In this document: in pieces, positions 19,508-42,460 of the stretch
Layout: each line of letters starts with the position of its first letter
Position numbering within the stretch: the first letter of the stretch is position 1
DNA from: a virus
Length of the DNA: 64,000 nucleotides
IMG/VR virus record: IMGVR_UViG_3300025674_000019
Span: 32,001 to 96,000 of that record
Reading direction: 5' to 3' (one strand)
The notes under the pieces: generated by a model
Databases searched by the model: none
What the model was told of the DNA's origin: nothing
Seen by the model: the letters and a program-made list of their open reading frames with translations, nothing else
Position numbers and translations under genes: made by a program

Positions 19508-19537
19508 TATATGTCTGCTGCCACTTAGGAGTCCAGC

Positions 19538-19720: not shown

Positions 19721-19733
19721 CTGGAGATTAAAT

Positions 19734-27658: not shown

Positions 27659-29788
27659 CTACTTCTTTCTTTTAGCTTTGCCTTTGGACTTGCGCTCTAG
27701 GGCTGCGCGCAACGCTGGAATACCTACAGCTGCAGCGCCGGTAGCTGCAAGAGCGCCTCCGACTGTATATGGGTTATCAACTGCGTAGTTGCTAGCGCTA
27801 CGTAGGCCGCGCATAGCGCTATCTCCTAGTGATGACCCAGTTGCGGCTAAGTACCTTCCAGCCTGGCCTAGTAGGTTAGCTTCATCAGAAAAAGGCGTAG
27901 TCAGTGTTTGCTGTACGCTCTCAGCTGCACTGTCTATTGGGCTTCTATCTCTGTTATAGAGGTATAGAGCTGTGCCTAGACCAGTAGCGCCTACTGCAGC
28001 TTTACCCGCATCGCCAGCGGCCGCGCGTAAGGCTTGCTCTTGAGCATCTAAAAGATCCCTAGAGTACTGCTCCTGGGCTGTATTGAACTGCTGGGTATAC
28101 TCATCTTTGACCTGCTTTCGGGTGCTCTTGGTCTTTGCTTGACCCTTAAGCTCCTTTAGCTGTTGCTTCAAGAAATCTCTTCTAGACTGGTCACCAGCGG
28201 AGAGGGTTTTTTGGCTAACTAAGTCCTTAAGATCTTTCTCCATGCGCTGAACTTGCCTTGTAGCCTTATCCCTGCGCTTTACTACTTCTTCAGCTACTGC
28301 TTTAGTGTCTTCAGCTAGGTTCTTTGGGGCTGATTTCCCTGCTGCCCTTAGGCGGCCTGCAGCCGTATACCGCTTTGCTAGCATATCTAAGAGGCTAGCA
28401 GTCTTTGGCATCTCAGGGGCTACAGGCTGAGAGATATTAACCTGGCCAAGTAGCTGAGGGGCAGCAGCCTGGGCTTCTTCAGCGCTGTACCCCATGTTAG
28501 TGAGGTAAGCCACGATCTCGTTGTAGCTCTGGTTGTAGGCTTCTAGCTGCTTGTCGTACTCAAGTTGCTCTGGAGTTTTATCCGGAATGGCTTCAACCTG
28601 AGGGGCCGCTGCTTCTGGGCTAGCATACATTTGGCTGTACGCTGAGTACACCTCTTCTGGGCTGTAACCCATGGAGATATAATCTTCTGGGCTGTAGGTT
28701 TGTACCTGAGGCTCGTAGCCCATAGACGAGTAGCCCTGCTGGGTGTCGAAGGTAACCTCTGGCTCATAGCCCATAGAAGCGTACTGGTCTTGGGAGTAAG
28801 AGGGCTCTGCCTCGTAAGCCATGTTGATGTAGTCTTCTGGGCTGTAAGTCTGAACCTCGGGCTCGTAACCCATAGTCTCATACTCTGAAGGAGCAGAGCT
28901 AAACATGTAGTTCTGCATAGTCTCTTTAGGTGCGTAGTAATTAGCCATGCCGTCGGCGGGCTCTGGCTGGTACTCCTCCAGATCTTCATTCTCGTACATG
29001 GGCTCGTAGTCAGAGACTGCGGCCAGCTTAAAGAGGTCTCTAGCGGACCGAAATCTGTTGCTACTACCCATAATAACTATCTCCATTGATGACTGCTTAA
29101 TAAGTGAACTCGCAGCGAGGTTAAGGGCTCTCATGGCCTGAAGTCGTTGGTGATCCGCCTGCTCGGCAGCGTTAAGTACTCTGCCCATACGCTTCTCTAG
29201 GTACTCCCTGTCCGAGAGTAGCCGCTTATTCTTACGCCTAGAGACCCGCTCTACTATGTTTTTTATATCTCTGTACTCACCGACTCCTTGACCTAGGAGC
29301 CTTTGGTCTACGTACACGCTGGAGTTACGGTCCCACTTCTGATTGCCTAACTCAGCTGCGGCATATCCAGGGTCGTAAAACACACCGCCGCCAACTGATG
29401 GCGCGCGCCTATCAGCGGGGTCTGTCCAACCATGAGTTCGCAATGCTGCAGTTACAACCCTCGATTGAGTGCCTGGGACAGAGTACGTTTGGCTAATCCC
29501 CTGCTGTATCTGAGCGATGCCCTTGCCAGTAGCAGAGGGGGCTGCCGGAGGAGGAGTAAGGTTCTCCTTGAGAGGGGCTGGCTCAGGCTTTCCTAATGGT
29601 ACCGCTACTTGAGGCTCTGGCTCTCCCATAGGTACTGGAGGTGCAAGCGCCTGGTTGGGTTGCGCGGGCATATCATCTTTGAGACCGGGCTCTTGCATCG
29701 CGCTATTATTCTGGCGCCCGATCTCCTGAGCAAGTTTCTCATCCTGCTCATGATCATAAGGATCGCCGTCCATAGTAAGGTAAGGCAT
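27659..29788 (-). CDS. K-x-A-motif modular protein (709 aa) with Tyr/Glu repeats and C-terminal Gly-rich helices
   Basis: IKQSS, FKLAA and PKTAS junctions; MGYEPEVQTYSPEDY repeats. Confidence 0.6.
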   Translation of the reverse strand: MPYLTMDGDPYDHEQDEKLAQEIGRQNNSAMQEPGLKDDMPAQPNQALAPPVPMGEPEPQVAVPLGKPEPAPLKENLTPPPAAPSATGKGIAQIQQGISQTYSVPGTQSRVVTAALRTHGWTDPADRRAPSVGGGVFYDPGYAAAELGNQKWDRNSSVYVDQRLLGQGVGEYRDIKNIVERVSRRKNKRLLSDREYLEKRMGRVLNAAEQADHQRLQAMRALNLAASSLIKQSSMEIVIMGSSNRFRSARDLFKLAAVSDYEPMYENEDLEEYQPEPADGMANYYAPKETMQNYMFSSAPSEYETMGYEPEVQTYSPEDYINMAYEAEPSYSQDQYASMGYEPEVTFDTQQGYSSMGYEPQVQTYSPEDYISMGYSPEEVYSAYSQMYASPEAAAPQVEAIPDKTPEQLEYDKQLEAYNQSYNEIVAYLTNMGYSAEEAQAAAPQLLGQVNISQPVAPEMPKTASLLDMLAKRYTAAGRLRAAGKSAPKNLAEDTKAVAEEVVKRRDKATRQVQRMEKDLKDLVSQKTLSAGDQSRRDFLKQQLKELKGQAKTKSTRKQVKDEYTQQFNTAQEQYSRDLLDAQEQALRAAAGDAGKAAVGATGLGTALYLYNRDRSPIDSAAESVQQTLTTPFSDEANLLGQAGRYLAATGSSLGDSAMRGLRSASNYAVDNPYTVGGALAATGAAAVGIPALRAALERKSKGKAKRKK
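28660..28885 (-). repeat. coding tandem repeats (MGYEPEV[Q]TYSPEDY-like)
   Basis: Recurrent ggctcgtagcccat and tcttctgggctgta units on the + strand. Confidence 0.7.
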
Positions 29789-29892
29789 AGTAACTCCTGA
29801 GAGTATGTCTTTATAAATGTTATGAAGAAGGATAATAGCGGGAAAGTAAAGAGAGTGTCCTCCCTATAATTAGGCAAAGAGAGGAGGACTGT

Positions 29893-30528
29893 ATGTGGTC
29901 TGATAAGGGTAAACGTTCGTGGCTGGCCAGCTTTGTGTTCCTGACACTCGTGGTTGGCCTTATATTCTTTCTAACCTTCCTAGAGGTTCCTGATAAAAAT
30001 AAAGACCTCATCACCAGCATTATAGGGATGATCGTCGGCAGCATCAGCACTGTGATCTCGATCTTTGTAGGTAGAGATCCGGATGATGTCAAAGACCTAA
30101 AAGAGGCTATACAAGAGCTTAACAGTGACCGTAATGCGCTCATAGAGAGGCTGCGAGACGCCCAGCTAGATAAAGAGACTCTGCGCAAGCAGCTTGAGGC
30201 ACTACAGACTCAGGTGATTGAGAGGCTCAGTATCTTTGTTGGAGAACACAGGCTAGCCGAAGTGGGCGGAGCAGACATACAGTTAAGCCCAGAGGTAGAG
30301 CGCTGGATGCCTAAGCCGCACGAGACGCCCATGCCTAACTCGGTAAGTCCGCTACCACGAAAGCATACTCAGCGCAACCCTACTCCTCCGGTGCCCTCTG
30401 GAGGCAGAGTCCCCTCAACGCAGCCTCCAGGGTCTAGCCCGGCGGTCCAGCCTCAAAAAGCTCCTAAGCCAGAGAAGCAAGAGCCCCTTGATGATTGGAT
30501 GGATCTCTTTGGTAAGCCAGAGGACTAG
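29893..30528 (+). CDS. two-TM membrane protein with coiled coil (holin-like)
   Basis: GAGGAGG RBS; two N-terminal TM helices, a coiled coil and a Pro-rich tail. Confidence 0.55.
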   Translation: MWSDKGKRSWLASFVFLTLVVGLIFFLTFLEVPDKNKDLITSIIGMIVGSISTVISIFVGRDPDDVKDLKEAIQELNSDRNALIERLRDAQLDKETLRKQLEALQTQVIERLSIFVGEHRLAEVGGADIQLSPEVERWMPKPHETPMPNSVSPLPRKHTQRNPTPPVPSGGRVPSTQPPGSSPAVQPQKAPKPEKQEPLDDWMDLFGKPED

Positions 30529-30563
30529 CCTATCCTTTGGTCTTTAACCAGGGGAGGCTAATC

Positions 30564-30659
30564 ATGGATGTAATACTTCCAGTATCTGTACTGGCTGCCG
30601 CCTACTGCAGCATTATTCTAGAAGCTGTTAAAGAGTACCGTAGGCGGTCTGAAAGCTAA
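30564..30659 (+). CDS. small hydrophobic peptide (31 aa, MDVILPVSVLAAAY...)
   Basis: GGGGAGG RBS. Confidence 0.45.
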   Translation: MDVILPVSVLAAAYCSIILEAVKEYRRRSES

Positions 30660-30668
30660 AAAATAGAG

Positions 30669-31151
30669 TTACTCCTCAGAAGAGTTAACTCTACTCATAA
30701 TCTCTAGGTCCTCTGCGCTAAGAGAAGCTCTTAGGATCTTATGTAAGGCCTCCGAGTGGGGGCCTGGAACCTCCGGTTCCTGCGTCCACGCTAGCGGAGC
30801 GTCCTGAGCCTTTAATACTGGCTCTAAGTCTGGCTCTAAGCCTGTATCTAATATCTCAGGAAGAAAGTCCTCGGTATCCAGAGGAGTATCTTCCTCAGGT
30901 GTACTTTCCGGAATCCTTGCCGCGGATAATACGCCTGGGTTGAACTCACGTAATGCGATGTAGATGAGCGTACGTATAACCAGGCTAGGAGTGACCTTAA
31001 AGTCAGACTCTAACGCCAACGCATCGGCTAGGTTACCCAGTTCTTCGCGCTGAGCGCGGGTTAATCGAAAAGAAGTGACGGTAATATCGCCGTGGGCCGT
31101 AAGTTTAAGCTGTCGGTCCATATCTAACAATAGTTTTCTGGTTATCTTCAA
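30669..31151 (-). CDS. ribbon-helix-helix DNA-binding protein with an acidic tail
   Basis: TVTSFRLTRAQREELGNLA...TPSLVIRTLIYIAL strand-helix-helix pattern; TTG start with GGAGG RBS. Confidence 0.6.
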   Translation of the reverse strand: MKITRKLLLDMDRQLKLTAHGDITVTSFRLTRAQREELGNLADALALESDFKVTPSLVIRTLIYIALREFNPGVLSAARIPESTPEEDTPLDTEDFLPEILDTGLEPDLEPVLKAQDAPLAWTQEPEVPGPHSEALHKILRASLSAEDLEIMSRVNSSEE

Positions 31152-31259
31152 GGCTAGGAGCCTCCTCTCTCGTTTTGCATTATTGCAGTACTTTAAGTAG
31201 CAATATCAGATTGTATTATGTGTAGTTTAGCATACTTAAGTCTAAAATACAAAAGTTCA

Positions 31260-32100
31260 GTGTCGATACTTTCCGGAAAATAGATGTTCAGTAGTAAAAT
31301 GCATTACGTAATGCATTTTTGCTACATCTAGGTTACACACACATGTAACTAAACGTCGTAGACTGTATACAATTTCTGCTACATCTATGTATACTTTCCG
31401 TTTTTCCGTTATACTTTCCGGAAAATAGGTCTGAATAATATCATACACTTAACTGTACTTTCCGTTTTTTCCGCCTATTTTCCGAAATGGATTTCCTTTT
31501 TAATATCATATAGTTACAGCGAAAAATGGCCTACTTTCCGTTTTTTTCGGAAAATACCTATATATAGGTACTGAGCCCTACTTTTTTTTTCACTCGCCAA
31601 AGGGGCCCGTGAGGGGTACTAAAAATAGTTTAATTTTTTTACTTCCTGTATAGGTGTTCAGGTGAGTATATATCGTACTACCTACTGTAATAACCCTTAG
31701 CTTTGGACTTAGGCTTAAGTTTGCATGTAAGGGCAGTAGTTGGACTCCAGAGTATACACAAAGAGTCAACAACTAACTTAAAAAACCAGTAATTCCCTCG
31801 CGCGTAACGTATATATAGGTATATAAGTATTTCCCTGAAAAAGAGGAAAATAGGGTAAAATAGGGGCTAACCCCATAGAATCACTGGGAAAATACTTTCC
31901 GGAAAGTATAAACAGAAAACGGAAAGTAGCCGTAAGTCTATGTAATTGTTAAGATCTATTTTCCGGAAAGTATGGACCAAAAACGGAAAGTATACATAGA
32001 TGTATCTTTTGCTCAGCCTACTTTCCGGAAAGTAGAGCTAAAAAAACGGAAAGTATACATTCCAGTAGCAAAAGCAGCCTTCAACTACTTTCCGTAATAC
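31260..32100. repeat. AT-rich symmetric iteron/palindrome array (candidate replication origin or centromere)
   Basis: Over a dozen TACTTTCCG/CGGAAAGTA half-sites, full palindromes at 31892-31909 and 32018-32035, and a ~53-bp imperfect inverted repeat at 31380-31432 / 31952-32004. Confidence 0.75.
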
Positions 32101-32112
32101 AAAACCCTCGGA

Positions 32113-33183
32113 TCACCTAAATACAACGCTAAGAGTCCGGTTCCGTATGTTGGCCAGCCTGTCACAGTCATATACTGACAGCTCAACCCTGGAGGCTAGC
32201 CCATAGCCTCCAGCCTTCGACCAGATATCAAAGGCGTCCTCCGGATGCGGGTACTCGGTAGCGGTATGCAGTCGGCCTCTTACGACTTCATGCTCGCCCT
32301 CTAGCTTTGGCTCACCGTTGCACAGCAGCTTATCTATTGTCATAGTGAAGACCTCCAGCAGCATGTTCCTCTTATGACGTTCGCTGCCGCCGCCAATCTT
32401 AGAGAAGTCATCTTCAGATATACTGCCGTAGATCAGCTTACTGTAGTAGATAGAGTGAAAGAACTCTGAGCACGTACTTAAGGGTTTCTTCCAAAGTCTA
32501 TCCTCTGAAGGTATATCCTCTACAAACTCCCCGCCCTCTCTGTCGCACATATAGACTTTGATCTTTACGGTGTCAGTCTCTGCGTCCCAGAAAAGATCGG
32601 AGATTGTCTTACGACCCTCTATGTAGCCCACACCCTTATTTACTGTGTAGAGTACGCTTCCATTCGGATATATATGAAAGACGCAGAACCTACTCTCTAG
32701 CTGAGGGAGCGCCTTGAGGCACACAGCTCTGCCGTAGGTATATACCGGAAGTTCATGCATCGGAGTCTCCCGGTAGTAAGGGGACACTGCAGGTACGTAA
32801 TACAGTATGTTTCCGCACGGATCATTAGAGTCCCTCTCATCCAGGTACTCTCCTACGTACTCATCTAGGTCCCACTCGTTACTAGGGTCGAACATAGCGA
32901 TGTACTTAGGGTCGTCCGCAGCAGCCCAACCCGAGTAGATCGGATCTCTTAGCTCAGGCTTCCAGTAGCTTGCTTCCGCAGAGTAGACAGCACTCTTTAC
33001 TGCTTTGATACTACTTCCACCTCTAACGTTATCTCTAGCGATAACTGGCATTCTATTATCTTGAGTAAACGCAAACCCATATAGGCTCGCCATAAAAGGG
33101 CTGAAATCAAATGGTCTTTTCACTGCTAACTCTCCGTATATACTAAAAAAAAAGATCTCTCTAGGTGTAGCGTCCGGTGACAT
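32113..33183 (-). CDS. hypothetical protein (356 aa)
   Basis: Long ORF with no recognisable motif; start codon uncertain. Confidence 0.6.
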   Translation of the reverse strand: MSPDATPREIFFFSIYGELAVKRPFDFSPFMASLYGFAFTQDNRMPVIARDNVRGGSSIKAVKSAVYSAEASYWKPELRDPIYSGWAAADDPKYIAMFDPSNEWDLDEYVGEYLDERDSNDPCGNILYYVPAVSPYYRETPMHELPVYTYGRAVCLKALPQLESRFCVFHIYPNGSVLYTVNKGVGYIEGRKTISDLFWDAETDTVKIKVYMCDREGGEFVEDIPSEDRLWKKPLSTCSEFFHSIYYSKLIYGSISEDDFSKIGGGSERHKRNMLLEVFTMTIDKLLCNGEPKLEGEHEVVRGRLHTATEYPHPEDAFDIWSKAGGYGLASRVELSVYDCDRLANIRNRTLSVVFR

Positions 33184-34184
33184 TCCCAGTCGTGGCGACT
33201 GGGAGATGTTGCCTAGCAGATAGAAAAGTTACGCCTAAGCGTCAGTTTTCTGTCTGAGCAAATGCGCCTGTTAGTACTTATAGCCGGAGTTACCCCGACC
33301 TAGCATCAGAGATCTTCTAAGTGTACGTGTGTACCTGTAGAGGTATTTTCTACGGGTCTCTTTCACTTTACCTAGCGGCGACGTACCTTCGCCATAACTC
33401 AAGATCCTCTAAGCGTAGCTTTCCCTGAGGACAGAGCTCGATTGCGCGAGCTCAGGCCGTAGGGGACGGGGCAACTACTACTCCAGGGTAGTGCCCCGCT
33501 CTGCTACTATACGAGCTTAAACCAGTGGTTGATGTAACCTCAACCTGATTCTCAGGGTTCTCGAATTTAGTTTAGTGGACTGATTTTATCTCAGCAGTAT
33601 TACAACAGAATCCTCTAGATGTAGCTGTTCGTGCCAGGTGGTCGTCTCTACCGACCAAAACCTGGAACAGACGGACATATGTCAATATGTCCGGGTGCCG
33701 AACGTACTGCCAATAACAGAGTGTCTGAAGTAGCTTCAGACTAACCTCAGGATTCTTACATCGCCCTCTAGTTGCTAGGTTTCTTATCCGGCGGTGGACA
33801 CACGGGTCACCCGCCGGATAAGGCATCGTTCTTTCGTCCTCCGAAAAATGATGGAATCCTAACGCCTCGACTATAGCTATAGCTGAAGTGGCTCCAGCCT
33901 AATATCAGGGCGGGTGCCTCTACTTTCTAGCTTAAATTTATTAATGGCTAATTAATAAATTTAGCAAGTAGTGAGCAGAGACCTGCACATTGTATTAGCC
34001 TCGGTGTGCCTCCGAGTTGTACCTCAGGCAGCCGCCTACATGTCTAAGTAGACTAGCATTATATTGCGAGATCTTAGAACGACCTCCAGCAGGGGTAACC
34101 CCTGCCTGCATCGCGGCATAAAGTGGTACTAGCTTTACCGGGACGTGACCCCGGCGGCTCTATTAGTAAGGAGAGCCTGCTAGG
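33180..34184 (+). ncRNA. candidate large structured non-coding RNA A (~970 nt)
   Basis: No credible ORF; many perfect stems, nested helices and end-to-end pairing. G-U wobbles mostly favour the + strand. Confidence 0.55.
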
Positions 34185-34854
34185 TCCCTCCCTCTACTAA
34201 CGAGAGAAGGATCTGCTCCGGGTGGACTACTACTCCGGAAGCAGAGAACTCAAGGGTAAGAGACCGGCCGTCCAGCCCATCGTCCCGAAGGTGATGGTAC
34301 ATGTCCTTGTCGATCTTTCTTCCTCGGTAGAAGTACTCTACCTTTAGCCCAGACAGCGGGTCAAGCTCTGATCGACCGGACCCGGCAACCTCCTCAGAAG
34401 CGGTTCCCTCCAGGCGAGAGATGACGCTATTGCAGGCCTCAACAAGCTTAGGAGTCGCTCCCCACACGTAGGCTCCCATGTAGGTGAGGTACCCCTTCTT
34501 GCTGAGCCAAGAGAAGGCGTGAGTGCCGTCATGGCCAGCCGTCTCATTTCTATGCCTGTGAGAGCTATCGCAGAGAAACTCATCATTCAGCATCGGGAAG
34601 ATCTCATCATCCACGTTCTGCCGGATCTGAGGCCCCATGTACCCTCTAGTACGTAGAAAGGTAGTCGCGCCATTGATCATCTGAATAAGGATACTGGCGA
34701 GACCTGTGGCTGCTGCCCAGGACTGTGTGTTTGTGAACTCGTCACAAATGATATGGGCAATGACCTCTTCTTGTAGGATAGTGGAGTGCTCCTCATTACT
34801 CATATCGACTCTGATACCAGAGTTATTAAGAGATATAGGCTGTGCGTTAGGCAT
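34180..34854 (-). CDS. hypothetical protein, possibly DNA-binding (MPNAQPISL...)
   Basis: GGAGG RBS before the ATG at 34854; the ORF-track extension upstream is probably leader sequence. Confidence 0.6.
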   Translation of the reverse strand: MPNAQPISLNNSGIRVDMSNEEHSTILQEEVIAHIICDEFTNTQSWAAATGLASILIQMINGATTFLRTRGYMGPQIRQNVDDEIFPMLNDEFLCDSSHRHRNETAGHDGTHAFSWLSKKGYLTYMGAYVWGATPKLVEACNSVISRLEGTASEEVAGSGRSELDPLSGLKVEYFYRGRKIDKDMYHHLRDDGLDGRSLTLEFSASGVVVHPEQILLSLVEGGT

Positions 34855-35080
34855 AGCGTTTTTTCCTCCAGCTGGAAGGATATAGGGTATAATCTCCCCT
34901 AGGTATAGTTGGCGGATCCTTCCGCGCGGAGGTTTGCGTAGGAATACGTAGTATTCTCGTAGCAACTCGTAGCTTCGGAGGGAGAGCTGACTGTACTGTG
35001 AAGTCAACGTTCCGGAAAGCTGAGGTAACCTCAGCACTATCTCGGGAGATTGACCTGAGCTAAGGCGCCCAGATCAAATT

Positions 35081-35109
35081 CTTATAACAAATTAATCCTG
35101 ATTTTTGCG
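35081..35109 (-). promoter_or_regulatory. phage bipartite promoter copy
   Basis: CGCAAA-N14-TGT-TATAAG on the minus strand. Confidence 0.65.
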
Positions 35110-35493
35110 CGCAGGCATCTTTGTCTTTGCGCCTACTTTTCTGTAAGCCTCATCAAGCACATCTACTCCGAGGGCAGACGACTTCCAGTAATGGTCCGGT
35201 GCGGTCAGAGCCCAAGCAATCAGGGTAGTTACTCTCTCTACGTACTCAGAGTCCTCAACCATCATATAGTAAGGGACAAGGATCTTCAGGTCCATGCCAT
35301 CACCGTCCTCTGAGTCCCCATAGGTTACAACTAGGTCCTGCTTTGAGACTTGAGCTATGTTTGGGTCTACGGCACCCAATAGCTTTCTAAGGGTCTCTAA
35401 TATCCTAAGAAAGAAAAGTATAACTCTGAACTTAATTACTTTTATTACGCTTTCTTTTTCTGGCACGCCTAGCCTCCTTGTTCCTCTGCTCAT
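35092..35493 (-). CDS. hypothetical protein (start uncertain)
   Basis: ORF within a tightly packed minus-strand operon. Confidence 0.5.
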   Translation of the reverse strand: MSRGTRRLGVPEKESVIKVIKFRVILFFLRILETLRKLLGAVDPNIAQVSKQDLVVTYGDSEDGDGMDLKILVPYYMMVEDSEYVERVTTLIAWALTAPDHYWKSSALGVDVLDEAYRKVGAKTKMPARKNQD

Positions 35494-35794
35494 AGTTCCA
35501 TCTTGCGGACCTTAGCCTGCACTGATCCCCACAGTATTTCCTGCCAGGAGCTTGAGGCAAGTCGCACTTAAAGAAAGAGCACACGGGAACCTCCGTAGGC
35601 TCACATACGGGCTCTGGGAGGGCTTCCTTGGGGGGCTCGGCCACGGGCTCAGGCTCAACGTAAGGGCCTCTGCCTGGGCAACCCAAAAAGAAGCACTCCT
35701 TAAACTTCCTTGGAAATCTAAACTTTTGGAGCTGGTCCCTACAGATCCATTCCTCTCCGTACCAAATGACTTTGCAGGGTGGCTTTGTATTCAT
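35432..35794 (-). CDS. Cys-rich putative zinc-binding protein
   Basis: CFFLGCPG and CSFFKC...YCGDQC; basic tail. Confidence 0.55.
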   Translation of the reverse strand: MNTKPPCKVIWYGEEWICRDQLQKFRFPRKFKECFFLGCPGRGPYVEPEPVAEPPKEALPEPVCEPTEVPVCSFFKCDLPQAPGRKYCGDQCRLRSARWNYEQRNKEARRARKRKRNKSN

Positions 35795-35802
35795 ATGTGT
35801 AC

Positions 35803-36282
35803 CTACTCATAGTGGGGCACCTCTGTATCTTGGTGCTGTCCTGGAGTATCTTCTACCAGAATCTCCATTTCACTTCCCCCCAATACTGAATAGATGTCGC
35901 CCCCGTGCTCGTCCTTCCACTTATTCTTTAGGTATTCTCTAAGCTTAGACTCTGCGCCCTCGGAGTACTCGAAGGGTATTGTATCCCTAAGATGACTAGT
36001 GTTGTACCACCAACCACCTTCTTCAGGCCCTCCGTAGTGGCGAGTAATTGTATATACAGATAGGTATTTTACTTTAGCCTCGCCCGAAGTGCTACAGAGC
36101 GGAGGGTCCTCTTGGTCTAGAACCTCTAGCCCCATCCTATCTTTATACTTATACTCTAAGTAGTTAGTGATCTGAGAGGGGTCATCGTACTCGGCCTCGT
36201 AGGGAATAGCTTCTATTGGGGTCTTACTGCCCTGGGTATTACTGTATGCACATAGGTACCTGATGGCCACTGTTAGCTCCAC
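35803..36282 (-). CDS. hypothetical phage protein
   Basis: YGGPEEGGWWY motif, which is common in phage hypotheticals. Confidence 0.6.
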   Translation of the reverse strand: MELTVAIRYLCAYSNTQGSKTPIEAIPYEAEYDDPSQITNYLEYKYKDRMGLEVLDQEDPPLCSTSGEAKVKYLSVYTITRHYGGPEEGGWWYNTSHLRDTIPFEYSEGAESKLREYLKNKWKDEHGGDIYSVLGGSEMEILVEDTPGQHQDTEVPHYE

Positions 36283-36536
36283 TCTGCTTTGATCTTGCTG
36301 ATCATAATTCTAGTCTCTTCTAGCGCGGCGTACTCCAGGGCACTTGCCATTGTCCCCGGATCTAGAGATAGCTTAATCTCTATTACACCGCAGGGGTACT
36401 GATCCCCATGCTCTTTATGGTGAGCCATGTACTCTTCGGCTTTTTCCCTTGCGTCGAAGTACTTAATAAACCAGAACTTATTGTTCCTATCTACCCTCAG
36501 CCTGTAGAGCCTTTGAGCTTCAGTTGCCACCAGCAA
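36273..36536 (-). CDS. hypothetical protein
   Basis: Coupled ORF. Confidence 0.5.
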   Translation of the reverse strand: MLVATEAQRLYRLRVDRNNKFWFIKYFDAREKAEEYMAHHKEHGDQYPCGVIEIKLSLDPGTMASALEYAALEETRIMISKIKAEWS

Positions 36537-36792
36537 CCTTCTCTAGGTAGCGCATGAAGCTTATCCAGCCGTATGCCGATATGTCAGGGCTGGCATCTTT
36601 AAGAAGAAGGGAAGTGTAGAACTCTTCCTTAACCTCCTTCTTACCGATGATAGACCGCTGAGACTTATCCCAGAGCTTTTTGAAGTCCCCGTAAGTGTAG
36701 GCGGCGTTCCTGCAGGCAATCAGCAGGCATATCTCGGCGGGAGTGAAACCTTCTAGATCTACAGCCCACTCAGGCATGTCACTCCTCTTCAT
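36520..36792 (-). CDS. hypothetical protein
   Basis: Coupled ORF. Confidence 0.55.
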   Translation of the reverse strand: MKRSDMPEWAVDLEGFTPAEICLLIACRNAAYTYGDFKKLWDKSQRSIIGKKEVKEEFYTSLLLKDASPDISAYGWISFMRYLEKVAGGN

Positions 36793-36967
36793 TTCTAGAA
36801 CTGATCACGCCGTCCATAAACGATACAAAGGCTGCCTTTACTTGAGCATCTGTCCTCAGTAATTCTGCACCAATCTTACGAGTGAGCTCTAGCTCCGCCT
36901 TGATGTAGTGCTCAGGCGGAAGCTTCTCTTGGCTTTCTTTACTACGAGTACTTTCGTCTATAGCCAT
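36779..36967 (-). CDS. hypothetical protein (MAIDESTRSKE...)
   Basis: GGAG RBS at the ATG at 36967; the upstream part of the ORF-track call belongs to other genes. Confidence 0.55.
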   Translation of the reverse strand: MAIDESTRSKESQEKLPPEHYIKAELELTRKIGAELLRTDAQVKAAFVSFMDGVISSRNEEE

Positions 36968-36980
36968 ATTTATTCTCCAG

Positions 36981-37073
36981 CTAATATAAGTAAAGCAGAG
37001 TTGCAGCAGCTCCCAAGAGCACTGCAAAAAGAACACAGCTGCCGTACATAGCGACTTTGTATACTGTTTCCAT
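36981..37073 (-). CDS. small membrane peptide (METVYKVAMYG..., 30 aa)
   Basis: AAGGAG RBS; hydrophobic. Confidence 0.5.
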   Translation of the reverse strand: METVYKVAMYGSCVLFAVLLGAAATLLYLY

Positions 37074-37092
37074 GGGAAGGGCTCCTTATCTG

Positions 37093-37260
37093 TCAAAGGG
37101 CCAAGCAGTACATGAGGGAAATTCTTAGTGTAAGATAGACCACCGCATAAAACAATGTTGTAACCAACATATCCGATAGGCCTGTGTACACACTGATGTA
37201 CGCATACGCGTAGCAGGTAACAAAGAGGGCGATAACGCCTGCGAGCACCATGCCGAACAT
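37093..37260 (-). CDS. small two-TM membrane protein (MFGMVLAGVIAL..., 55 aa)
   Basis: AAGGAGGAG RBS; hydrophobic. Confidence 0.55.
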   Translation of the reverse strand: MFGMVLAGVIALFVTCYAYAYISVYTGLSDMLVTTLFYAVVYLTLRISLMYCLAL

Positions 37261-37369
37261 GCACTCCTCCTTTAAGCGTAAAGTAGTTGCGGCTGACTGT
37301 TACTCTTCTATGAGCACGCCACCAGCCTGTACGATTTGAGCTGCTTCTTCACACCGTAGGCAACTATAC

Positions 37370-37441
37370 TGGGCCGCCCGGGACTCGAACCCGGAACCAA
37401 TGGATTAAAAGTCCACTGCTCTACCATTGAGCTAGCAGCCC
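37370..37441 (-). tRNA. tRNA-Lys(UUU)
   Basis: Cloverleaf GGGCTGC...TTT...GGTTCGAGTCC; CCA not encoded. Confidence 0.93.
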
Positions 37442-37464
37442 ATGCGCCCCTAGCGGGGCGCTGA

Positions 37465-38889
37465 CTAAAAGTCGTCTGTCAGCAAGACGTAGGAACTATA
37501 CGCTGTTAGGGCCGACAATGCTAGGGTCGTTATACCAAGAATCTTATGGCCAGTAGGATATCTCTCCCCCCAGGTGGACAAGCCTCCATGCACAGAAAGA
37601 TCCCCTGTGTTTAGGCAGAGGTTACCTTCTTGCTTATAGTCACGACCACAATCTCTGTAGTACTCACCCGCCAACCAGTTGCCCGCAGCTACCAAAGAGA
37701 GCAGGCCCCCTAGAACTACAACAGGGTAGTTCCACTCCCCGGGCGCTTCACTGTAGTCCACCAGGCCCCTCGTTACGGCTATTCGGCCCGGCTCTACTTC
37801 GGAGTACCTATCGTATGAGCTAAGAGTGTGGATACCCAAGCCATCCTTAAGCACGTGAGTGTAGCCCCAGCCTGGAAGAGAGTCCTGTAGATATTCTCTT
37901 AGAGAATGCAGCTCAGCTTCTCTACTAGCCACCTCTCGAGTTTTCTCCGCTATGGCGGGAGACTCTACGTCTATACCGTAGGCCTCTATCTCTTCATCAA
38001 GGTACTCTTGATATCCGAATAGCTGTAGGTGCTCTAGGACTGCAGCCTTCAGAGTAGCCCCGGACACGCTATCGAAGCCCTGTACCTCTCGCAGCGCGGC
38101 TAGGTGTGATTCTCTGCCGATAGGCTCAACCCTGGGAGAGTTAAGTATCTCAAGAAATCTACTATACTTCCTAGAGTAGTCCCTCAGGTACAGCTTGTAG
38201 TGCTGTACTTTACGCAGGGCGAGATCAGAGTAGTCTGGGTACTGAATTAAATTGTCCCATAACCTGAGGCGCTCGCTAGCGCTTATACTCGGGTCAGAGT
38301 CAGATTGGGTAGCGTTCTCCAGAGCTCTCATAGCCTCCAGGTCCATAGACCGAGAAGCCCTTAGCTCTGCTACTCTAGTTGCATCAAGTAATAACCCTTC
38401 TCTTCCCTGGCGAGAGAAGCTAACAGGCGCCTCCCCTTCCCTGGTAGTAGCGTTTAGCTTCAGAAAGAAAGCGAGCCTTCTAGACAGCTCACCAGTGTTA
38501 CCTATAGAAGAAGACTCGCTGAAGACACTTGTGCCTTCTAGTGATCTAAAAACCTCTAAAGATAACCTTCCAGCTAAAAGCCTGCCTGCCACTACCCAGT
38601 CTGCCCCGACAGTTCTGCCTATATTTACAGAGCACATGTCGGAGCAGTCTTCTAGCTCAGTGCCTTCAGGCAGCAAAGCCTCTACGTTCTCACTACTGAG
38701 AGTCCTATAGGCGGCAGGGTCCGAGATAGTCCTGCGCACTTGCCCAGTGAGATCTATCGCAGCAGTATCTCCCTGTATATTTAGAACTAGTACACGTGGA
38801 AGGCTAGAGGACCTCTCTACTGGCTTGGGCCCTGCGCCACAGCCAAGCAGAAAAGATAAACTAGTAATGCCTACGAATAAGTATCGCAA
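37465..38889 (-). CDS. putative lipoprotein with a TolB-N/CsgG-like domain and C-terminal TM segments
   Basis: Lipobox-like FLLGC; LEDCSDMCSVNIGRTVGADWVVAG motif; probable TTG start. Confidence 0.55.
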   Translation of the reverse strand: MRYLFVGITSLSFLLGCGAGPKPVERSSSLPRVLVLNIQGDTAAIDLTGQVRRTISDPAAYRTLSSENVEALLPEGTELEDCSDMCSVNIGRTVGADWVVAGRLLAGRLSLEVFRSLEGTSVFSESSSIGNTGELSRRLAFFLKLNATTREGEAPVSFSRQGREGLLLDATRVAELRASRSMDLEAMRALENATQSDSDPSISASERLRLWDNLIQYPDYSDLALRKVQHYKLYLRDYSRKYSRFLEILNSPRVEPIGRESHLAALREVQGFDSVSGATLKAAVLEHLQLFGYQEYLDEEIEAYGIDVESPAIAEKTREVASREAELHSLREYLQDSLPGWGYTHVLKDGLGIHTLSSYDRYSEVEPGRIAVTRGLVDYSEAPGEWNYPVVVLGGLLSLVAAGNWLAGEYYRDCGRDYKQEGNLCLNTGDLSVHGGLSTWGERYPTGHKILGITTLALSALTAYSSYVLLTDDF

Positions 38890-39049
38890 AGCCAAGCAAC
38901 AAGAACCAGCCAATGCCCGTCCACCCTGCAAAGATATTAAGCAGGAAGATACCGGGGGTACGGCGCAGCTTACGGGAGCTAGCGATTATACTCGGTAGGA
39001 AGTAGGCTACAGTTATACCAAAGCCGATTACTAGAGCTTCAACGCTCAT
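38861..39049 (-). CDS. superinfection immunity protein (T4 Imm family)
   Basis: YFLPSIIA..R.....IFLLNIFAGWTGIGW signature. Confidence 0.85.
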   Translation of the reverse strand: MSVEALVIGFGITVAYFLPSIIASSRKLRRTPGIFLLNIFAGWTGIGWFLLLGFAILIRRHY

Positions 39050-39200
39050 CGCGCTTATTCCTCAATTGCTTGAGTGCCCACTTCGGAGGGTTCTTCATAA
39101 GATAAACCTTTTGAAGAAACTCCAAAGGATCTTTATATTCTGACTGGTTACTCCAGTTGCTTAGTACTTCAGGGTGCAACCCTTTGTGCGTCTCTTTCAT
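39039..39200 (-). CDS. small hypothetical protein (MKETHKGLHPE..., 53 aa)
   Basis: AAGGAGG RBS. Confidence 0.5.
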   Translation of the reverse strand: MKETHKGLHPEVLSNWSNQSEYKDPLEFLQKVYLMKNPPKWALKQLRNKRDER

Positions 39201-39223
39201 AGTTCCTCCTTTGAAGAGACAAG

Positions 39224-39297
39224 CGTACCAGGCAGGGCTCGAACCTGCGACCCTCGGCTTAGGAGGCCGATGCTCTATCCATCTGAGCTACTGGTAC
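39224..39297 (-). tRNA. tRNA-Arg(CCU)
   Basis: Cloverleaf with anticodon loop CT-CCT-AA. Confidence 0.92.
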
Positions 39298-39356
39298 CTA
39301 TGTCCGGGTTTACCGGACTGAGGGCACTTAGTCCAGAACTTCTACTAGCTCAAGAC

Positions 39357-39557
39357 TTACTCCTCCGTATACCCATCGAACCAAGGCCCAAACCTCTTAG
39401 TTCTACGCACAGCCTCAGGACTGGTAGCTGTGCGGCTACTTGTCTCTGGGTCCCTGCAGTGAGCCTGAGCTTCTTCCTCAGTGAGCCCTGTCTGCCCGTA
39501 GTCTCTACGAGAAGAGTCCCTGTAGAAGCGAACTATTTTATAAGTCGCCACTACCAT
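39357..39557 (-). CDS. hypothetical phage protein
   Basis: YKIVRFY...TGLTEEEAQAHCRDPETSS...WFDGY pattern. Confidence 0.6.
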   Translation of the reverse strand: MVVATYKIVRFYRDSSRRDYGQTGLTEEEAQAHCRDPETSSRTATSPEAVRRTKRFGPWFDGYTEE

Positions 39558-39795
39558 ACCCGCTCTTAGGCCCACGCACATGATCGAGCATAGCTTCCCA
39601 GTCCTCAGCAAATGTCACTAAGTCTGATAGATAGTTCTCTTGAACCATCTTATACGAATTCCTAGGGGACACCCTAGGCTCCTTACCCTGAGACTGCTCC
39701 ATAAGCTTGGAGAACTCTTCGTAGCTAAGTCCAGCTTTAGCGCAGATCAACTGAAGCGCTCTTTCTGCCGGAGTATAGTTTCGACCTCTAGCCAT
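39538..39795 (-). CDS. hypothetical protein
   Basis: 85-aa ORF within the operon. Confidence 0.5.
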   Translation of the reverse strand: MARGRNYTPAERALQLICAKAGLSYEEFSKLMEQSQGKEPRVSPRNSYKMVQENYLSDLVTFAEDWEAMLDHVRGPKSGYGSGDL

Positions 39796-39869
39796 AACAC
39801 ACGATACCCGTGCTTTTGTAGCATCTACTGCTTTCGTTGTTCATGCTTTACCTCCATGAACAGAGTGAG

Positions 39870-39943
39870 TACTCGGAGTGGGACTTGAACCCACGACCCC
39901 CGGTATGTAAGACCGGTGCTCTAACCAACTGAGCTACCCGAGT
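39870..39943 (-). tRNA. tRNA-Val(UAC)
   Basis: Cloverleaf with anticodon arm CCGGT-CTTACAT-ACCGG. Confidence 0.9.
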
Positions 39944-40003
39944 ATAGATTCCCCACCTCAATGGAGCTTAGTGCAGTAATATTAATAAACGAGGCGGGGA
40001 AAG

Positions 40004-40076
40004 TGCTGGAAGAGGGACTTGAACCCCCGGCCGGCTGATTACAAATCAGCAGCTCTACCAACTGAGCTATTCCAGC
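40004..40076 (-). tRNA. tRNA-Thr(UGU)
   Basis: Cloverleaf with anticodon TGT. Confidence 0.92.
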
Positions 40077-40194
40077 TTAGGTCCCGCAGTACTAGGCTAC
40101 CCTGCGGAGCGGTAATGGGCAAAAGGAGGAAAATCCCAAGACCCTTTGGCTTAAACTGCTCACCACAAACAATATGCACCTCCGAATCGCCTAC

Positions 40195-40276
40195 TGCCCC
40201 GGGCCGGACTCGAACCGGCACGCCTCTCGGCGGGAGATTTTAAGTCTCCTGTGTCTACCGGTTCCACCACCAGGGC
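40195..40276 (-). tRNA. tRNA-Leu(UAA)
   Basis: Type II cloverleaf with a long variable arm; anticodon TAA. Confidence 0.92.
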
Positions 40277-40315
40277 ATATCCTTCCTTTCCTAGTATCAA
40301 TGGCGTATATGCGCG

Positions 40316-40507
40316 TCAACACATTTCTGCAAGCCAAGACTCTCCTGAGGGAGTAACTCGCCAAGTGGCATCGCCCATAGTAACAATGGCGTAGGTTTCT
40401 GAAGGCTTCGATACTACTTTGAAGCCCCACTTGTTATCTTTAGAGTCTTTCGTAAGAAACTCGACGCCCTTAAGGACGATATCTACATTCTTTCTTCTAT
40501 TTTTCAT
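40316..40507 (-). CDS. hypothetical protein
   Basis: Coupled ORF. Confidence 0.5.
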   Translation of the reverse strand: MKNRRKNVDIVLKGVEFLTKDSKDNKWGFKVVSKPSETYAIVTMGDATWRVTPSGESWLAEMC

Positions 40508-41057
40508 CTATATCCTTTGGCCACCAATAAGGAGGCTCCGCGTTAGTCCAAGTGGCAAACTTAGCTTTGTCTGCTACGTAGAACTTCCTATAAGACCCCA
40601 CAGGGTCACTAGGATCTTTAAGATGCTCAAGCTCAGGCCCGAATGCTAGATAAGGGGGCGTAACCTTATCCTGCCTAGGGAACAAGCACCTTCCCTCTAA
40701 CCTAAGCCCTAGAGCAAACCTAAAGGCCAACTTAGCTACGCGGTAACTCTTATGCTGAGTACCGAATCTAAGCCTCTGCTGGCTACTCATGCCTATAGAA
40801 TGCCTGTAAGCCCATTTAAAATTAGGCCAGCTCTCTCCTACCCAGATCGTGCACCCATGCTTATGGTGTGCCGTCTTATAGAGGAACTTAAGCCCCTCTG
40901 GGAGCTGCTCTCTAGGGACGTTTATTAGCCCCATGCGCATCCTTACAGCTGTACACAGCATTTGAGCTGTCTCTAGCTGCATTAAAGTGACGTGTTGATC
41001 GCACAACCACCCTGCTGCTTTGAGAGGATTATGGTCCAGATAAAATACGTTCAACAT
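40497..41057 (-). CDS. pyrimidine-dimer DNA glycosylase/endonuclease V-like protein, copy 2
   Basis: NVFYLD...CDQHV...ETAQML, YKTAH, YRKFY...K...ATW...PYWW. Confidence 0.7.
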   Translation of the reverse strand: MLNVFYLDHNPLKAAGWLCDQHVTLMQLETAQMLCTAVRMRMGLINVPREQLPEGLKFLYKTAHHKHGCTIWVGESWPNFKWAYRHSIGMSSQQRLRFGTQHKSYRVAKLAFRFALGLRLEGRCLFPRQDKVTPPYLAFGPELEHLKDPSDPVGSYRKFYVADKAKFATWTNAEPPYWWPKDIDEK

Positions 41058-41602
41058 TTTTCTTTAGGCCACCAGGGTGGCGGCTCAGAGTTAGTCCAGG
41101 TGGCAAACTTAGCTTTGTCTGCTATGTAGAACCTCCTGTATGACCCCGCCGGGTCCATCGGGTTCTTTAGGTGCTCTAGTGCTGGACCGAATGCCATATA
41201 GGGAGGAGTAGTAGTCATAGACTCAGGGAGAATAAAGTTATGCTCCTTTCTCTCTTTATGCAGGAACAACCAAGCATCCTTAGCGACCCGAAAGCTTTTA
41301 TGCCTCGTACCAAATCGCTGCTTGTGTTGCGCGTGCATTTGAATAACGTGCATAAACAGCCATTGAAAGTTACTAAAGCACTCTCCCACCCATTTAGTAC
41401 TGCCGTGCTTAGGATGAGCCGTCTTGTAGAGAAACTTAAGCTCGTCGGGAAGCTCTTCTCTTGGAGTATCCTCCAGGCTCATGTGAACTCTAATAGCCGT
41501 ACACATCATCTGTGCAGACTCTAGAATCATCTTAGAGACATGTTGATCACACAGCCAAGTAGCGGCTATAACTGGGTCGTCATCAAGGTAGAATACGTTC
41601 AC
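41051..41602 (-). CDS. pyrimidine-dimer DNA glycosylase/endonuclease V-like protein, copy 1
   Basis: MNVFYLDDDP...CDQHVSKMILESAQM; paralogue of the adjacent gene. Confidence 0.72.
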   Translation of the reverse strand: MNVFYLDDDPVIAATWLCDQHVSKMILESAQMMCTAIRVHMSLEDTPREELPDELKFLYKTAHPKHGSTKWVGECFSNFQWLFMHVIQMHAQHKQRFGTRHKSFRVAKDAWLFLHKERKEHNFILPESMTTTPPYMAFGPALEHLKNPMDPAGSYRRFYIADKAKFATWTNSEPPPWWPKEKC

Positions 41603-41967
41603 TAGAACTTCTTGAGAACTCGGTGCACTTCGTAGTAGCTAAGGGCTCCGCGCTCTTCTATATCTGTGATTTCGTCTCCCAGACGTATAAACTGGTAAGA
41701 CGTGTCCAGGCCTTGAGAGTCTAGCCATCTAAGGTAGTAGACTACTCTGTCTATCTTAGGATTGTCACAGAACTCGTACCACCTGGTATTCACAGAGGAG
41801 AACTCAACCAACTCTTCTTCCTCTTGCATGGTACAAAAGACGAACTTAAGCGTGTCAAGGATAGAGTCTTTACCCTCTCCTGTAACCCAAAGCTCATACT
41901 CTTCAGTCTTTCTAGAAAGCTCTTCGCTAGTAGAGAAGACCAGGGTAACATCGCTTCTATAGCTCAT
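41602..41967 (-). CDS. hypothetical phage protein
   Basis: MSYRSDV...FIRLGDEITDIEERG pattern. Confidence 0.6.
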   Translation of the reverse strand: MSYRSDVTLVFSTSEELSRKTEEYELWVTGEGKDSILDTLKFVFCTMQEEEELVEFSSVNTRWYEFCDNPKIDRVVYYLRWLDSQGLDTSYQFIRLGDEITDIEERGALSYYEVHRVLKKF

Positions 41968-41972
41968 CTAAA

Positions 41973-42054
41973 TGCCCAGGGAGGGAATCGAACCCTCACG
42001 CCCGAAGGCACAGGAACCTAAATCCTGCGCGTCTACCAATTCCGCCACCTGGGC
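41973..42054 (-). tRNA. tRNA-Leu(UAG)
   Basis: Type II cloverleaf; anticodon TAG. Confidence 0.92.
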
Positions 42055-42167
42055 AGGCCCAAGCACATTGGCAGCTTTGACTCTAAAGGTCAATAGGCTC
42101 GTATAGAGCTTCTTATAATAGAGTTCAGCATAGCACATGCTCATCTCCTAAAAGACATTAGCAAAAG

Positions 42168-42243
42168 CTTATGACAGCAAACTAATAGCTTTTGCTATTG
42201 ATTAGTCATAGCTAAAAGAAAAGTTCCTTAGGCTTTTCTTTAA
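42168..42243 (-). promoter_or_regulatory. terminator+promoter module
   Basis: AAAGAAAAGCCTAAGGAACTTTTCTTTTAGCT, then AGCAAA-N14-TGT-CATAAG. Confidence 0.6.
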
Positions 42244-42250
42244 ACTAGAT

Positions 42251-42460
42251 TTATTCCTTACTGTACCACCCTACCCAGACAAAGCCGAACAGGGGTGATA
42301 TGAACATTGGGATTGCGATCACATCAGGGATCCATGGAGAACCCTTAATCGCAATACAGCTCGCTGCCAAGCAGCCCAGGAGTACCTGGATTTCCCGGTT
42401 GAAGAGCTGCTTGAGTATCTCTCCCCAGCTCATCTCGGGCTCGTGCTCGGGCTCGCTCAA
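42251..42460 (-). CDS. small two-TM membrane protein
   Basis: Coupled to the upstream gene; hydrophobic. Confidence 0.5.
   Translation of the reverse strand: MSEPEHEPEMSWGEILKQLFNREIQVLLGCLAASCIAIKGSPWIPDVIAIPMFISPLFGFVWVGWYSKE

Follow-up and report, generated by a model that had tools for sequence, protein, structure and literature searches.

Small, site-specific proteins encoded beside a multi-site DNA array are a known arrangement. In iteron replicons, the initiator gene lies adjacent to the array and is autoregulated through a palindromic operator. Tetramers of the NikR type, in which a second domain joins two ribbon-helix-helix (RHH) dimers, bind inverted half-sites about two helical turns apart. 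Origins of staphylococcal pathogenicity islands (SaPIs), as excerpts of one report describe them, carry short sites oppositely oriented about a central region, use inverted pairs with A/T-rich spacers as proposed melting points, and include an origin placed just downstream of a gene (bioRxiv 10.64898/2026.10.17.759575). The RepA_N iterons, in the relevant part of another report, are semi-palindromic repeats converging on a poly-A tract (PMC7145576). The parH centromere of TP228 is presented in an excerpt as a stretch of about 100 bp in which degenerate boxes alternate with AT-rich spacers (PMC3130281). The locus described here is a mirror-symmetric, non-coding array next to a gene for a 160-aa protein. 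It lies in a 64,000-nucleotide stretch of viral DNA, "the window", which spans bases 23568-87567 of a linear virus record of 97,789 bp in IMG/VR (IMGVR_UViG_3300025674_000019, called the contig below).

The array fills an intergenic gap of 961 bp (31152-32112). Its sites, their layout, their conservation in relatives and their linkage to the small gene are directly visible. Judged from the sequence, the array is well supported as a selected, dedicated cis-element that would serve the cooperative binding of a two-fold-symmetric protein, and the tie between the element and the small gene is likewise well supported genetically. The reading favored here, with a probability of roughly 0.35, is that the gap is an origin-type assembly site for a dimeric, sequence-specific DNA-binding protein and is organized by the adjacent 160-aa product. 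The layout suggests either an origin or a centromere; the binder, its fold, the higher-order complex and the origin function are accordingly put in conditional terms throughout.

Architecture of the array

The initial annotation had described AT-rich non-coding DNA at this locus, and the description is borne out by a guanine-plus-cytosine (GC) content of 36.2% in the gap versus 49.4% in the window. The gap is the longest low-GC stretch of the contig and its sole non-coding repeat cluster; the remaining repeat-rich segments lie inside a giant open reading frame (ORF). The motif TACTTTCCG occurs in 15 exact copies in the window against 0.40 expected, a count that none of 100 shuffles attains, and all 15 exact copies of the entire contig fall within 30902-32094. 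The same motif read backwards, as a control, gives 1+1 matches on the contig. With at most one mismatch allowed, 20 of 41 contig matches lie inside this 1.2-kb interval and the other 21 are scattered singles, while palindrome-type sites with at most one mismatch are absent from the rest of the window. The palindrome core, with up to three mismatches, matches seven times against 2.4 expected: five times in the array and once inside the small gene. The restriction of the motif to the locus speaks for an array that is a dedicated element and not part of a global regulon. The seventh match, ACGTTCCGGAAAGC (35007-35020), differs from the palindrome core at two positions, lies near the 5' end of a 285-aa ORF (34180-35037) and is probably due to chance.

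The coordinates listed in the initial annotation all hold. All five left-arm half-sites (31267, 31392, 31412, 31456 and 31532) are correctly placed. The two right-arm palindromes, read there as 18 bp from 31892 and 32018, are perfect over 16 bp (31893-31908 and 32019-32034). The TATATATAGG elements at 31559 and 31810 occur nowhere else on the contig, counting a reverse-strand reading at 31557, and the center of symmetry proposed at about 31690 computes to about 31688. Two points need revision. The inverted repeat exists, but its reported size of 53 bp is an understatement, the arms matching over 115 nt at 78% (31380-31494 / 31890-32004), and local alignment stretches the match to about 185 nt at 70.8% identity. 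The repeat sites are real, but the functional unit is a composite of 36 or 25 bp and not a single 9-mer.

A composite unit has two half-sites in inverted orientation, separated by 16-27 bp; a third is often present and makes a 16-18-bp palindrome. About 20 half-sites are spread over 830 bp, and each arm spans about 185-192 bp. A TACATMKATGTA palindrome forms the outermost part of each arm, followed inwards by two 36-bp units, with a conserved ATATCATA-N3-TTA element in the spacer between them, a 25-bp unit and a TATATATA element (31559-31569 on the left, 31807-31822 on the right), where both arms terminate and the symmetry stops. Right-arm units are built from the 16-bp palindrome TAYTTTCCGGAAAGTA, 11-12 nt and the half-site CGGAAAGTA; the left-arm 25-bp unit at 31532 places two inverted half-sites on either side of T7. 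Unit starts lie 62-76 bp apart, or about six to seven helical turns, and this helical phasing, together with the mirror layout, points to a large wrapped or looped complex. As single-stranded DNA, the units form hairpins of -1.6 to -6.3 kcal/mol in the window, weak and uneven, and of about -10 in the relative L012 introduced below. The similarity of 36-bp repeats at a 64-bp period to a clustered regularly interspaced short palindromic repeat (CRISPR) array is superficial: degenerate repeats, inverted arms and conserved 'spacers' rule that identity out.

The core between the arms is asymmetric. Its A/T block sits in a 40-bp patch (31616-31660) with a GC content of 22.5%. ORF listings and a small-ORF check reveal no ORF in the core common to the window and L012, a search of the core against Rfam returns no match, and its predicted RNA folding is no better than that of shuffled sequences (z -0.72 and -0.07).

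Between the proximal-arm units lie copies of a spacer element, TAATATCATAnAnTTA (31436-31451 and 31501-31516), with equivalent spacers in both relatives.

Conservation in metagenomic relatives

In two metagenomic relatives, whose DNA is 70% identical, the sites recur with the same spacing and the genes stand in the same order. One, L012, has both arms; the other, L011, has the proximal arm only, its contig ending there. The order in both is the 336-aa gene, the array, the small gene, a convergent pair encoding 40 and 211 aa, and a gene for a 709-aa protein. Half-sites align column by column through both arms in L012 and through the proximal arm in L011. The 36-bp unit of the relatives reads TAYTTTCCGG-N16-CCGGAAARTA with an optional third half-site, so the constant feature is a pair of inverted, CCGG-centered half-sites with A/T-rich filling. 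Half-site-like motifs number 20 in the window, 15 in L012 and 10 in L011.

DNA identity between the window and L012 is 69.4% in the distal arm, 73.4% in the proximal arm and 61.0% in the core, compared with 70.7% in the small gene and 53.9% in the 336-aa gene; the non-coding arms are conserved to the same degree as the small gene. Site columns are 83-94% identical versus 64-69% for other columns, with the caveat that a motif match in either sequence defined the site columns. Gap columns number 2/248 in the distal arm, 1/226 in the proximal arm and 13/239 in the core. The identity of the arms and the near-absence of insertions and deletions argue that arm sequence and spacing are both under selection. 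The unit spacings of 64, 76, 64 and 62 bp are retained in L012. The two arms of L012 are 80.2% identical to each other over 192 nt, so the mirror layout itself is conserved. The A/T block of the core is unchanged in L012 and longer by a single T in L011.

Inverted arms of this length, with repeated sites and a non-coding core between them, also recall a remnant or non-autonomous mobile or invertible element, in which the 190-bp arms would be subterminal inverted repeats with recombinase or transposase sites. The likeness of the two L012 arms, which equals that between orthologous arms of different genomes (77-81% similar by local alignment), hints at concerted evolution. A mobile or invertible element is nonetheless most improbable: the element is present in a single copy in the contig, the relatives, though about 30% divergent, have it in the same place with the core in the same orientation, sites also occur outside the arms (31267, 30902 and 32086), no transposase or recombinase gene lies nearby, and no joints were seen in contigs covering the locus.

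Searches for further relatives were negative. DNA pattern scans of viral contigs gave 2, 40 and 24 loci, each with a single match and at most three half-site-like motifs, and these were set aside as chance. Searches via the small protein gave 11 viral-contig and 33 genome-contig pattern matches, none in a relative, and two distant protein homologues (P0007 and P0008) gave 82 and 136 pattern matches, again none in a relative. On one unrelated viral contig, which came up because of a palindrome match due to chance, GATGCATCACTTTTG-like repeats form a separate cluster (L009:2400-2620).

Table 1. Features of the array and its flanks, in window coordinates unless given as residues
Feature	Position	Strand	Remarks
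Convergent pair	29893..30659	+	211-aa membrane/coiled-coil protein and 40-aa hydrophobic peptide; syntenic in both relatives
160-aa gene, probable site-binding protein	30669..31151	-	TTG start, GGAGG 9 nt upstream
Parts of the 160-aa protein	residues 1-21; 22-75; 76-130; 131-160		basic; RHH-like strand-helix-loop-helix; acidic proline-rich linker; two-helix end
Intragenic 12-mer TACTTTCCGGAA	30902..30913	.	241 nt into the small gene
Candidate promoter of the small gene	31224..31252	-	TTGTAT, 17 nt, TAAACT
Solitary 16-bp near-palindrome TACTTTCCGGAAAATA	31267..31282	.	14 nt upstream of the candidate -35; kept in place in L011 and L012
Perfect 24-bp palindrome AAAATGCATTACGTAATGCATTTT	31296..31319	.	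different motif; unique in the contig; largely kept in L011 and L012
Left (proximal) arm	31380..31569	.	from outside to inside: TACATCTATGTA, 36-bp unit, spacer, unit, spacer, 25-bp unit, TATATATAGGT
Left-arm units	31392-31427 (36 bp), 31456-31491, 31532-31556 (25 bp)		starts 64 and 76 bp apart
Spacer element ATATCATA-N3-TTA	31438, 31503		both left-arm spacers, two exact copies
Left-arm TATATATAGGT element	31559-31569		inner end of arm
Core	31570..31806	.	237 bp, asymmetric, between the arms
19-nt A/T block AAAAAAATTAAACTATTTT (minus strand)	31622-31640		within the lowest-GC 40-bp patch of the core
Right (distal) arm	31807..32055	.	mirror of left arm
Right-arm TATATATAGGT element	31807-31822		inner end of arm
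Decayed 25-bp unit, right arm	31828-31852		intact in L012
Right-arm 36/37-bp units	31893-31928, 31957-31992, 32019-32055		starts 64 and 62 bp apart
TACATAGATGTA	31993-32004		right arm
Outermost solitary half-site	32086..32094	+	stop codon of the upstream gene 19 nt away
Upstream syntenic gene	32113..33183	-	ORF of 356 aa; homologues and database entry suggest 336 aa from an internal start

The small gene and its product

The product of the small gene begins with a basic segment of net charge +3, and its linker carries a net charge of -13 (Table 1). Among 5.8 billion clusters searched, five close homologues share 66-75% identity, with residues 11-75 nearly invariant; the cluster of the protein itself names a contig of 133,289 bp. 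Two distant homologues, found among 1.84 billion representatives, share 30-33% identity and the same build. R29, T31 and VTPS (53-56) are invariant in all eight sequences, distant homologues included. In the tail, LPEILDTGLEPDLEP and the C-terminal motif LEIM-x-RVNSSEE are conserved, the latter recognizable in the distant homologues too. No longer fused form occurs among 1875 candidates. The proteins belong to no database family, and fewer than ten members are detectable.

The initial annotation proposed an RHH pattern followed by an acidic, probably disordered tail. The sequence pattern is present, but family, profile and structure comparisons do not confirm the fold; the tail is indeed acidic (21 D/E versus 5 K/R in residues 76-160), but it is only partly disordered and ends in the conserved two-helix motif. 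Against Pfam, the small protein matches no family at E<=0.1; at E<=10, four homologues match none and the fifth has one unrelated weak match, and the eight N-terminal domains together yield a single, unrelated match. NCBIfam gives weak unrelated matches only, and PHROGs gives none. In profile searches of the PDB, the full-length profile has no matches and the domain profile has four, all unrelated. Alignments by hhalign to the Arc and Mnt proteins of P22 are not significant (P 0.07 and P 0.14), and the Atlas offers sub-threshold leads to a MetJ cluster (0.89) and to an RHH_4 cluster (template-modeling score, TM, 0.64).

An AlphaFold2 (AF2) monomer model has a mean predicted local distance difference test (pLDDT) score of 49.9, with helices at residues 32-48, 55-70, 132-143 and 146-157 and no structure over residues 20-31. 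A lack of structure in a modeled monomer is behavior that the strand of an obligate dimer might show; it is not evidence for one. Foldseek comparison of this low-confidence model with the PDB finds nothing at E<=0.001, only generic helical matches at E>=1, and a wide VIA-align search likewise gives generic helical matches only (best Z 6.1). What favors an RHH fold is the sequence pattern and the weak Atlas leads; the fold is probable for the small protein, and the protein is most probably the binder of the array.

The candidate promoter of the small gene has the hexamers TTGCAT/TAAACT in L012 and TTGCAT/TAACTT in L011 with unchanged spacing; the promoter scan proposes a different pair, TAGACT-18-CATAAT (31244-31215). 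The near-palindrome TACTTTCCGGAAAATA is likely an autoregulatory operator of the small gene, and the palindrome AAAATGCATTACGTAATGCATTTT is a probable site for a second factor. The function of the intragenic 12-mer TACTTTCCGGAA is uncertain, as coding constraint could explain its presence; a site stands at the same codon position in L011 and is missing from L012.

These promoter-proximal sites raise the possibility of a transcription control hub, in which a repressor or activator would coat the arms, loop the DNA and set the expression of its own gene without a role in replication or positioning; the protein might in addition serve as a roadblock or terminator where the 11-kb leftward gene cluster ends. 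On one side of the array a long leftward gene run (32113-43575) ends, and on the other lies a gene that has a candidate promoter to itself. One palindrome stands just upstream of the candidate -35, another site lies within the small gene, and on the minus strand the innermost left unit is scored as a terminator-like hairpin. Phage RHH proteins are known classically as repressors, as the annotated operators of P22 Arc and Mnt illustrate, and the second conserved palindrome (31296-31319) suggests combinatorial control. Such a hub is a possible, if doubtful, account of the locus. With some 20 half-sites spread across 830 bp, in two mirror arms that are each 190 bp long, the array goes far beyond the needs of autoregulation, and the distal arm lies 600-900 bp from the sole gene open to its control. 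The flanking genes are co-oriented, so there is no divergent promoter region, and sigma-70-like promoters show no excess (3 versus 3.1 expected). Other promoters of the contig are without sites, and the core has no conserved ORF or structured RNA to regulate.

A candidate replication origin

As an origin-type assembly site, the array might work as follows. Dimers would occupy the CCGG-centered half-sites, with the invariant Arg-x-Thr on the presumed beta-ribbon reading the CCGG core. The C-terminal two-helix motif, on its acidic tether of about 55 residues, would link dimers within a unit and could also link units about six helical turns apart on one face of the DNA, perhaps even both arms. 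The outcome would be a wrapped or looped complex that is mirror-symmetric about the core. Binding to the solitary palindrome just upstream of the small-gene promoter would give autoregulation. The complex would then mark and open a replication origin, strain from the arms melting either the TATATATA elements or the A/T block within the core, and the tail of the protein would recruit the primase and helicase machinery of the phage in both directions.

Several features of the locus are consistent with this proposal. Clustered repeat sites for one protein, as in iteron origins, are present, and inverted half-sites are separated by A/T-rich spacers, an origin-like layout. Primase, family-A DNA polymerase (PolA) and helicase are all specified by the phage itself, so a phage-specified origin is expected somewhere. 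Candidates for an unwinding element are the low-GC patch of the core and the two TATATATA elements; against them, the core overall has a lower AT content than the arms.

A number of observations weigh against an origin. At 40.1% GC, the core is not the most AT-rich part of the gap, the arms ranging from 32% to 35% (left arm 32.1%). A GC-skew inflection, which the initial annotation had proposed as a check, does not materialize in the expected sense: the cumulative G-C curve climbs from 16.4 kb, peaks locally near 31.4 kb instead of reaching a minimum, and declines to 43.9 kb, with the global maximum elsewhere, and it tracks a switch from mostly plus-strand genes to an 11-kb minus-strand run. 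Because the skew follows the coding strand, it lends an origin no support; the test is also a weak one, phage skew being dominated by transcription. By bacterial convention, the polarity of the skew at this locus is wrong for an origin. Genes to the right of the array are transcribed towards it instead of diverging from it, and about 50 kb separates the replication genes from it. Known initiator families are not represented: the flanking proteins have no Pfam or PHROGs match, and no initiator is found among 91 ORF translations. The RHH fold of the small protein is not confirmed by families, profiles or structures, and the binder could be another protein. In the full-text literature, as judged from titles and the beginnings of abstracts and with subscription journals outside the coverage, no phage origin-binding protein of RHH type was found. 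The element was found in three genomes only, which makes a covariation test between protein and motif impossible.

Sequencing assemblies bear on the ends of the genome. Contigs from two runs, X3 (30885-32106) and X4 (30478-32062), pass through both arms, and a fixed genome end at this position (a cos site or terminal-repeat boundary) is rejected because assemblies of two runs cross the array. The sole contig from an RNA run (267 nt, 29891-30157) lies outside the array and has no bearing either way.

Headful packaging would be compatible with assemblies that continue across the array, which could in principle be a pac-type site at which two clusters of sites for a small DNA-recognition subunit flank the first cut of the terminase. 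Two mirror clusters do stand on either side of a core of about 240 bp, and some pac sites have bipartite layouts. The conserved spacer element TAATATCATAnAnTTA resembles the consensus of integration host factor, and one L012 copy fits it fully by eye, a speculative likeness. Packaging is very unlikely as the role of the array, given a large terminase gene about 46 kb away beside a 174-aa gene that could encode the small subunit, and given a 160-aa protein that matches no terminase family.

Extending the origin-type reading to the whole protein family, so that an unrecognized family of small RHH-like proteins would organize the origins of large virulent aquatic phages by melting the edges of the core and recruiting the machinery bidirectionally, is a rather improbable step. 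Were it true, it would provide an initiator built on an RHH fold instead of a winged-helix or AAA+ fold.

Neighboring genes and the partition alternative

The 336-aa protein encoded upstream of the array has no Pfam, PHROGs or Atlas match, and its AF2 model has a mean pLDDT of 41. Homologues of the 211-aa protein occur at 15 high-GC viral loci without the small gene and without the array. One of these, on an IMG/VR contig, includes ten copies of a 36-nt repeat, CTTCCGCGCTCTTCGGAGCGTGGCYCTATTGAAGC, with a period of 72-75 bp and unique spacers (L095:1083-1770), a CRISPR-like array on a high-GC viral contig. In the 709-aa syntenic protein (27659-29788, minus strand), a motif about 16 residues long (MGYEPEVQTYSPEDYI-like) is repeated several times in tandem, and the C-terminus is both hydrophobic and basic; the only match of the protein is a sub-threshold one to UBA.

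Three or four syntenic neighbors of the membrane or coiled-coil kind are among the points that favor a centromere or positioning site, at which an adaptor like ParR, ParG or omega would build a segrosome and its tail would couple to a motor or to the membrane neighbors. The domain order of the small protein (a DNA-binding N-terminus, a flexible tail and a short terminal motif) is that of RHH adaptors, the array is repeated and helically phased, and the boxes and AT-rich spacers of parH offer a parallel. One palindrome of the array does sit near the small-gene promoter. A partition role is unlikely all the same. Known RHH centromeres consist of contiguous short repeats, and the units here, of 25-36 bp, are set 62-76 bp apart over 830 bp. 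No gene for a nucleoside triphosphatase (NTPase) adjoins the locus in any of the three genomes, and the phage looks virulent: it brings genes for replication and nucleotide metabolism, and neither integrase nor plasmid genes were noticed.

The initial annotation had suggested a search for ParA, ParM, tubulin or initiator genes. None was found in the contig by six-frame searches and by comparison of the 91 ORF translations with Pfam, in a contig of an estimated 61% completeness from which the absence of a gene is not proof. In six frames, AAA_31 (ParA) has no match, with positive controls in 14/14 genomes, and tubulin has no match, with positive controls in 13/14. A search with StbA/StbA_N (ParM) also gave no match, but its control gave none anywhere, which leaves that result uninformative.

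The phage and its source

The contig apparently derives from a large, uncultured, myovirus-like aquatic phage that is seemingly virulent. Its replication-related genes encode a CHC2-zinc-finger primase (1107 aa), a family-A DNA polymerase and an SF2 helicase. Further genes encode a large terminase, a reverse transcriptase, RuvC, ThyX, dCMP deaminase, a baseplate protein, ribonucleotide reductase, PhoH and a giant 2344-aa protein, and seven tRNAs are present. No integrase or plasmid gene was noticed among the gene annotations of the contig. Compared with a collection of cultured phages, the locus has neither a DNA nor a protein match, and its PolA reaches at best 22% identity to polymerases of the Herelleviridae. 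The runs that contain the stretch are labeled aquatic, freshwater, seawater, estuary and salt-marsh metagenomes.

A few observations concern other parts of the contig. TTCGAA occurs once on the whole contig against about 24.7 expected from base composition, and GATC, GGCC and TCCGGA are near expectation; the scarcity suggests avoidance of a host restriction site. In the 2344-aa ORF (52473-59507, minus strand), an HNH-like segment at the N-terminus is joined to PAP2 phosphatase and FMN-reductase/flavodoxin-like domains, and internal DNA repeats lie near 53.2-53.9 kb and near 57.4 kb. The reverse transcriptase gene lies outside the window (G000:15871-16929, plus strand; RVT_1, E 2.2e-11), and a search for a template/variable repeat pair found no direct repeat of at least 50 nt in 11000-20000. 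A 231-aa ORF among the baseplate genes (6607-7302, minus strand) has a sub-threshold match to Sigma70 region 3 (E 6.7e-5, 23.4 bits, cut-off 25.3) and, on this match, may be a phage sigma factor.

Comparison with known systems

Origins and genome-organizing sites of large uncultured phages are almost unknown, and the locus offers a compact pair of protein and array with strict spacing. If it is an origin organized by an RHH-type protein, it would add a new fold to the few known among replication initiators and would supply a sequence signature by which the origins of related metagenomic phages could be located. Should it prove to be a switch or a centromere instead, it would still represent an unusually large, mirror-symmetric nucleoprotein complex of RHH type. 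The element is useful for studies of cooperative binding and looping and may serve as an orthogonal DNA-protein module.

By analogy of layout, the array most resembles SaPI origins and RepA_N iterons. As in the excerpted SaPI description, opposed sites flank a center and inverted pairs enclose A/T-rich spacers. SaPI iterons are 5-7 nt long within about 300 bp, whereas the array has sites of 9-10 nt in units of 25-36 bp that are 62-76 bp apart over 830 bp, and the center of the array, unlike that of the SaPI comparison, is not its most AT-rich part. The SaPI binder is the winged-helix C-terminal domain of a hexameric Rep helicase; the candidate here is a 160-aa protein that is not a helicase. 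Repeated sites with internal dyad symmetry are shared with the lambda O/ori system and with RepA_N. Those systems, however, have direct repeats on one side of an unwinding element, about two helical turns apart, and initiators of known winged-helix families, none of which is detected on the contig.

Among RHH systems, the ParR-parC, ParG-parH and omega pairs, as far as the excerpted descriptions go, share a small RHH-like protein with a flexible tail and a conserved motif, encoded beside a multi-site array that probably serves in autoregulation as well. They differ in having a partner NTPase, of a kind that was not found here, and contiguous sites; the present array is 5-8 times longer, and the fold of its protein is unconfirmed. 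The similarity to P22 Arc and Mnt lies in the presumed strand and first helix, which fall in the expected register, with R29 on the Arg of the Arc strand in the hhalign alignment. Arc and Mnt each have one operator of about 21 bp and lack the long acidic tail and such a C-terminal motif.

The inverted half-sites of L011 and L012, TAYTTTCCGG-N16-CCGGAAARTA, have the geometry of NikR-type sites, an analogy that would suit linked dimers. In NikR, a metal-binding domain joins the dimers; here a disordered acidic linker and a short helical motif would take its place, and there is no known sequence relation between the two proteins. What sets the present locus apart from all of these systems is the combination of composite units, 25-36 bp long and recurring about every 64 bp, two mirror arms of 190 bp bounded by TATATATA, an asymmetric core and a protein that belongs to no database family.

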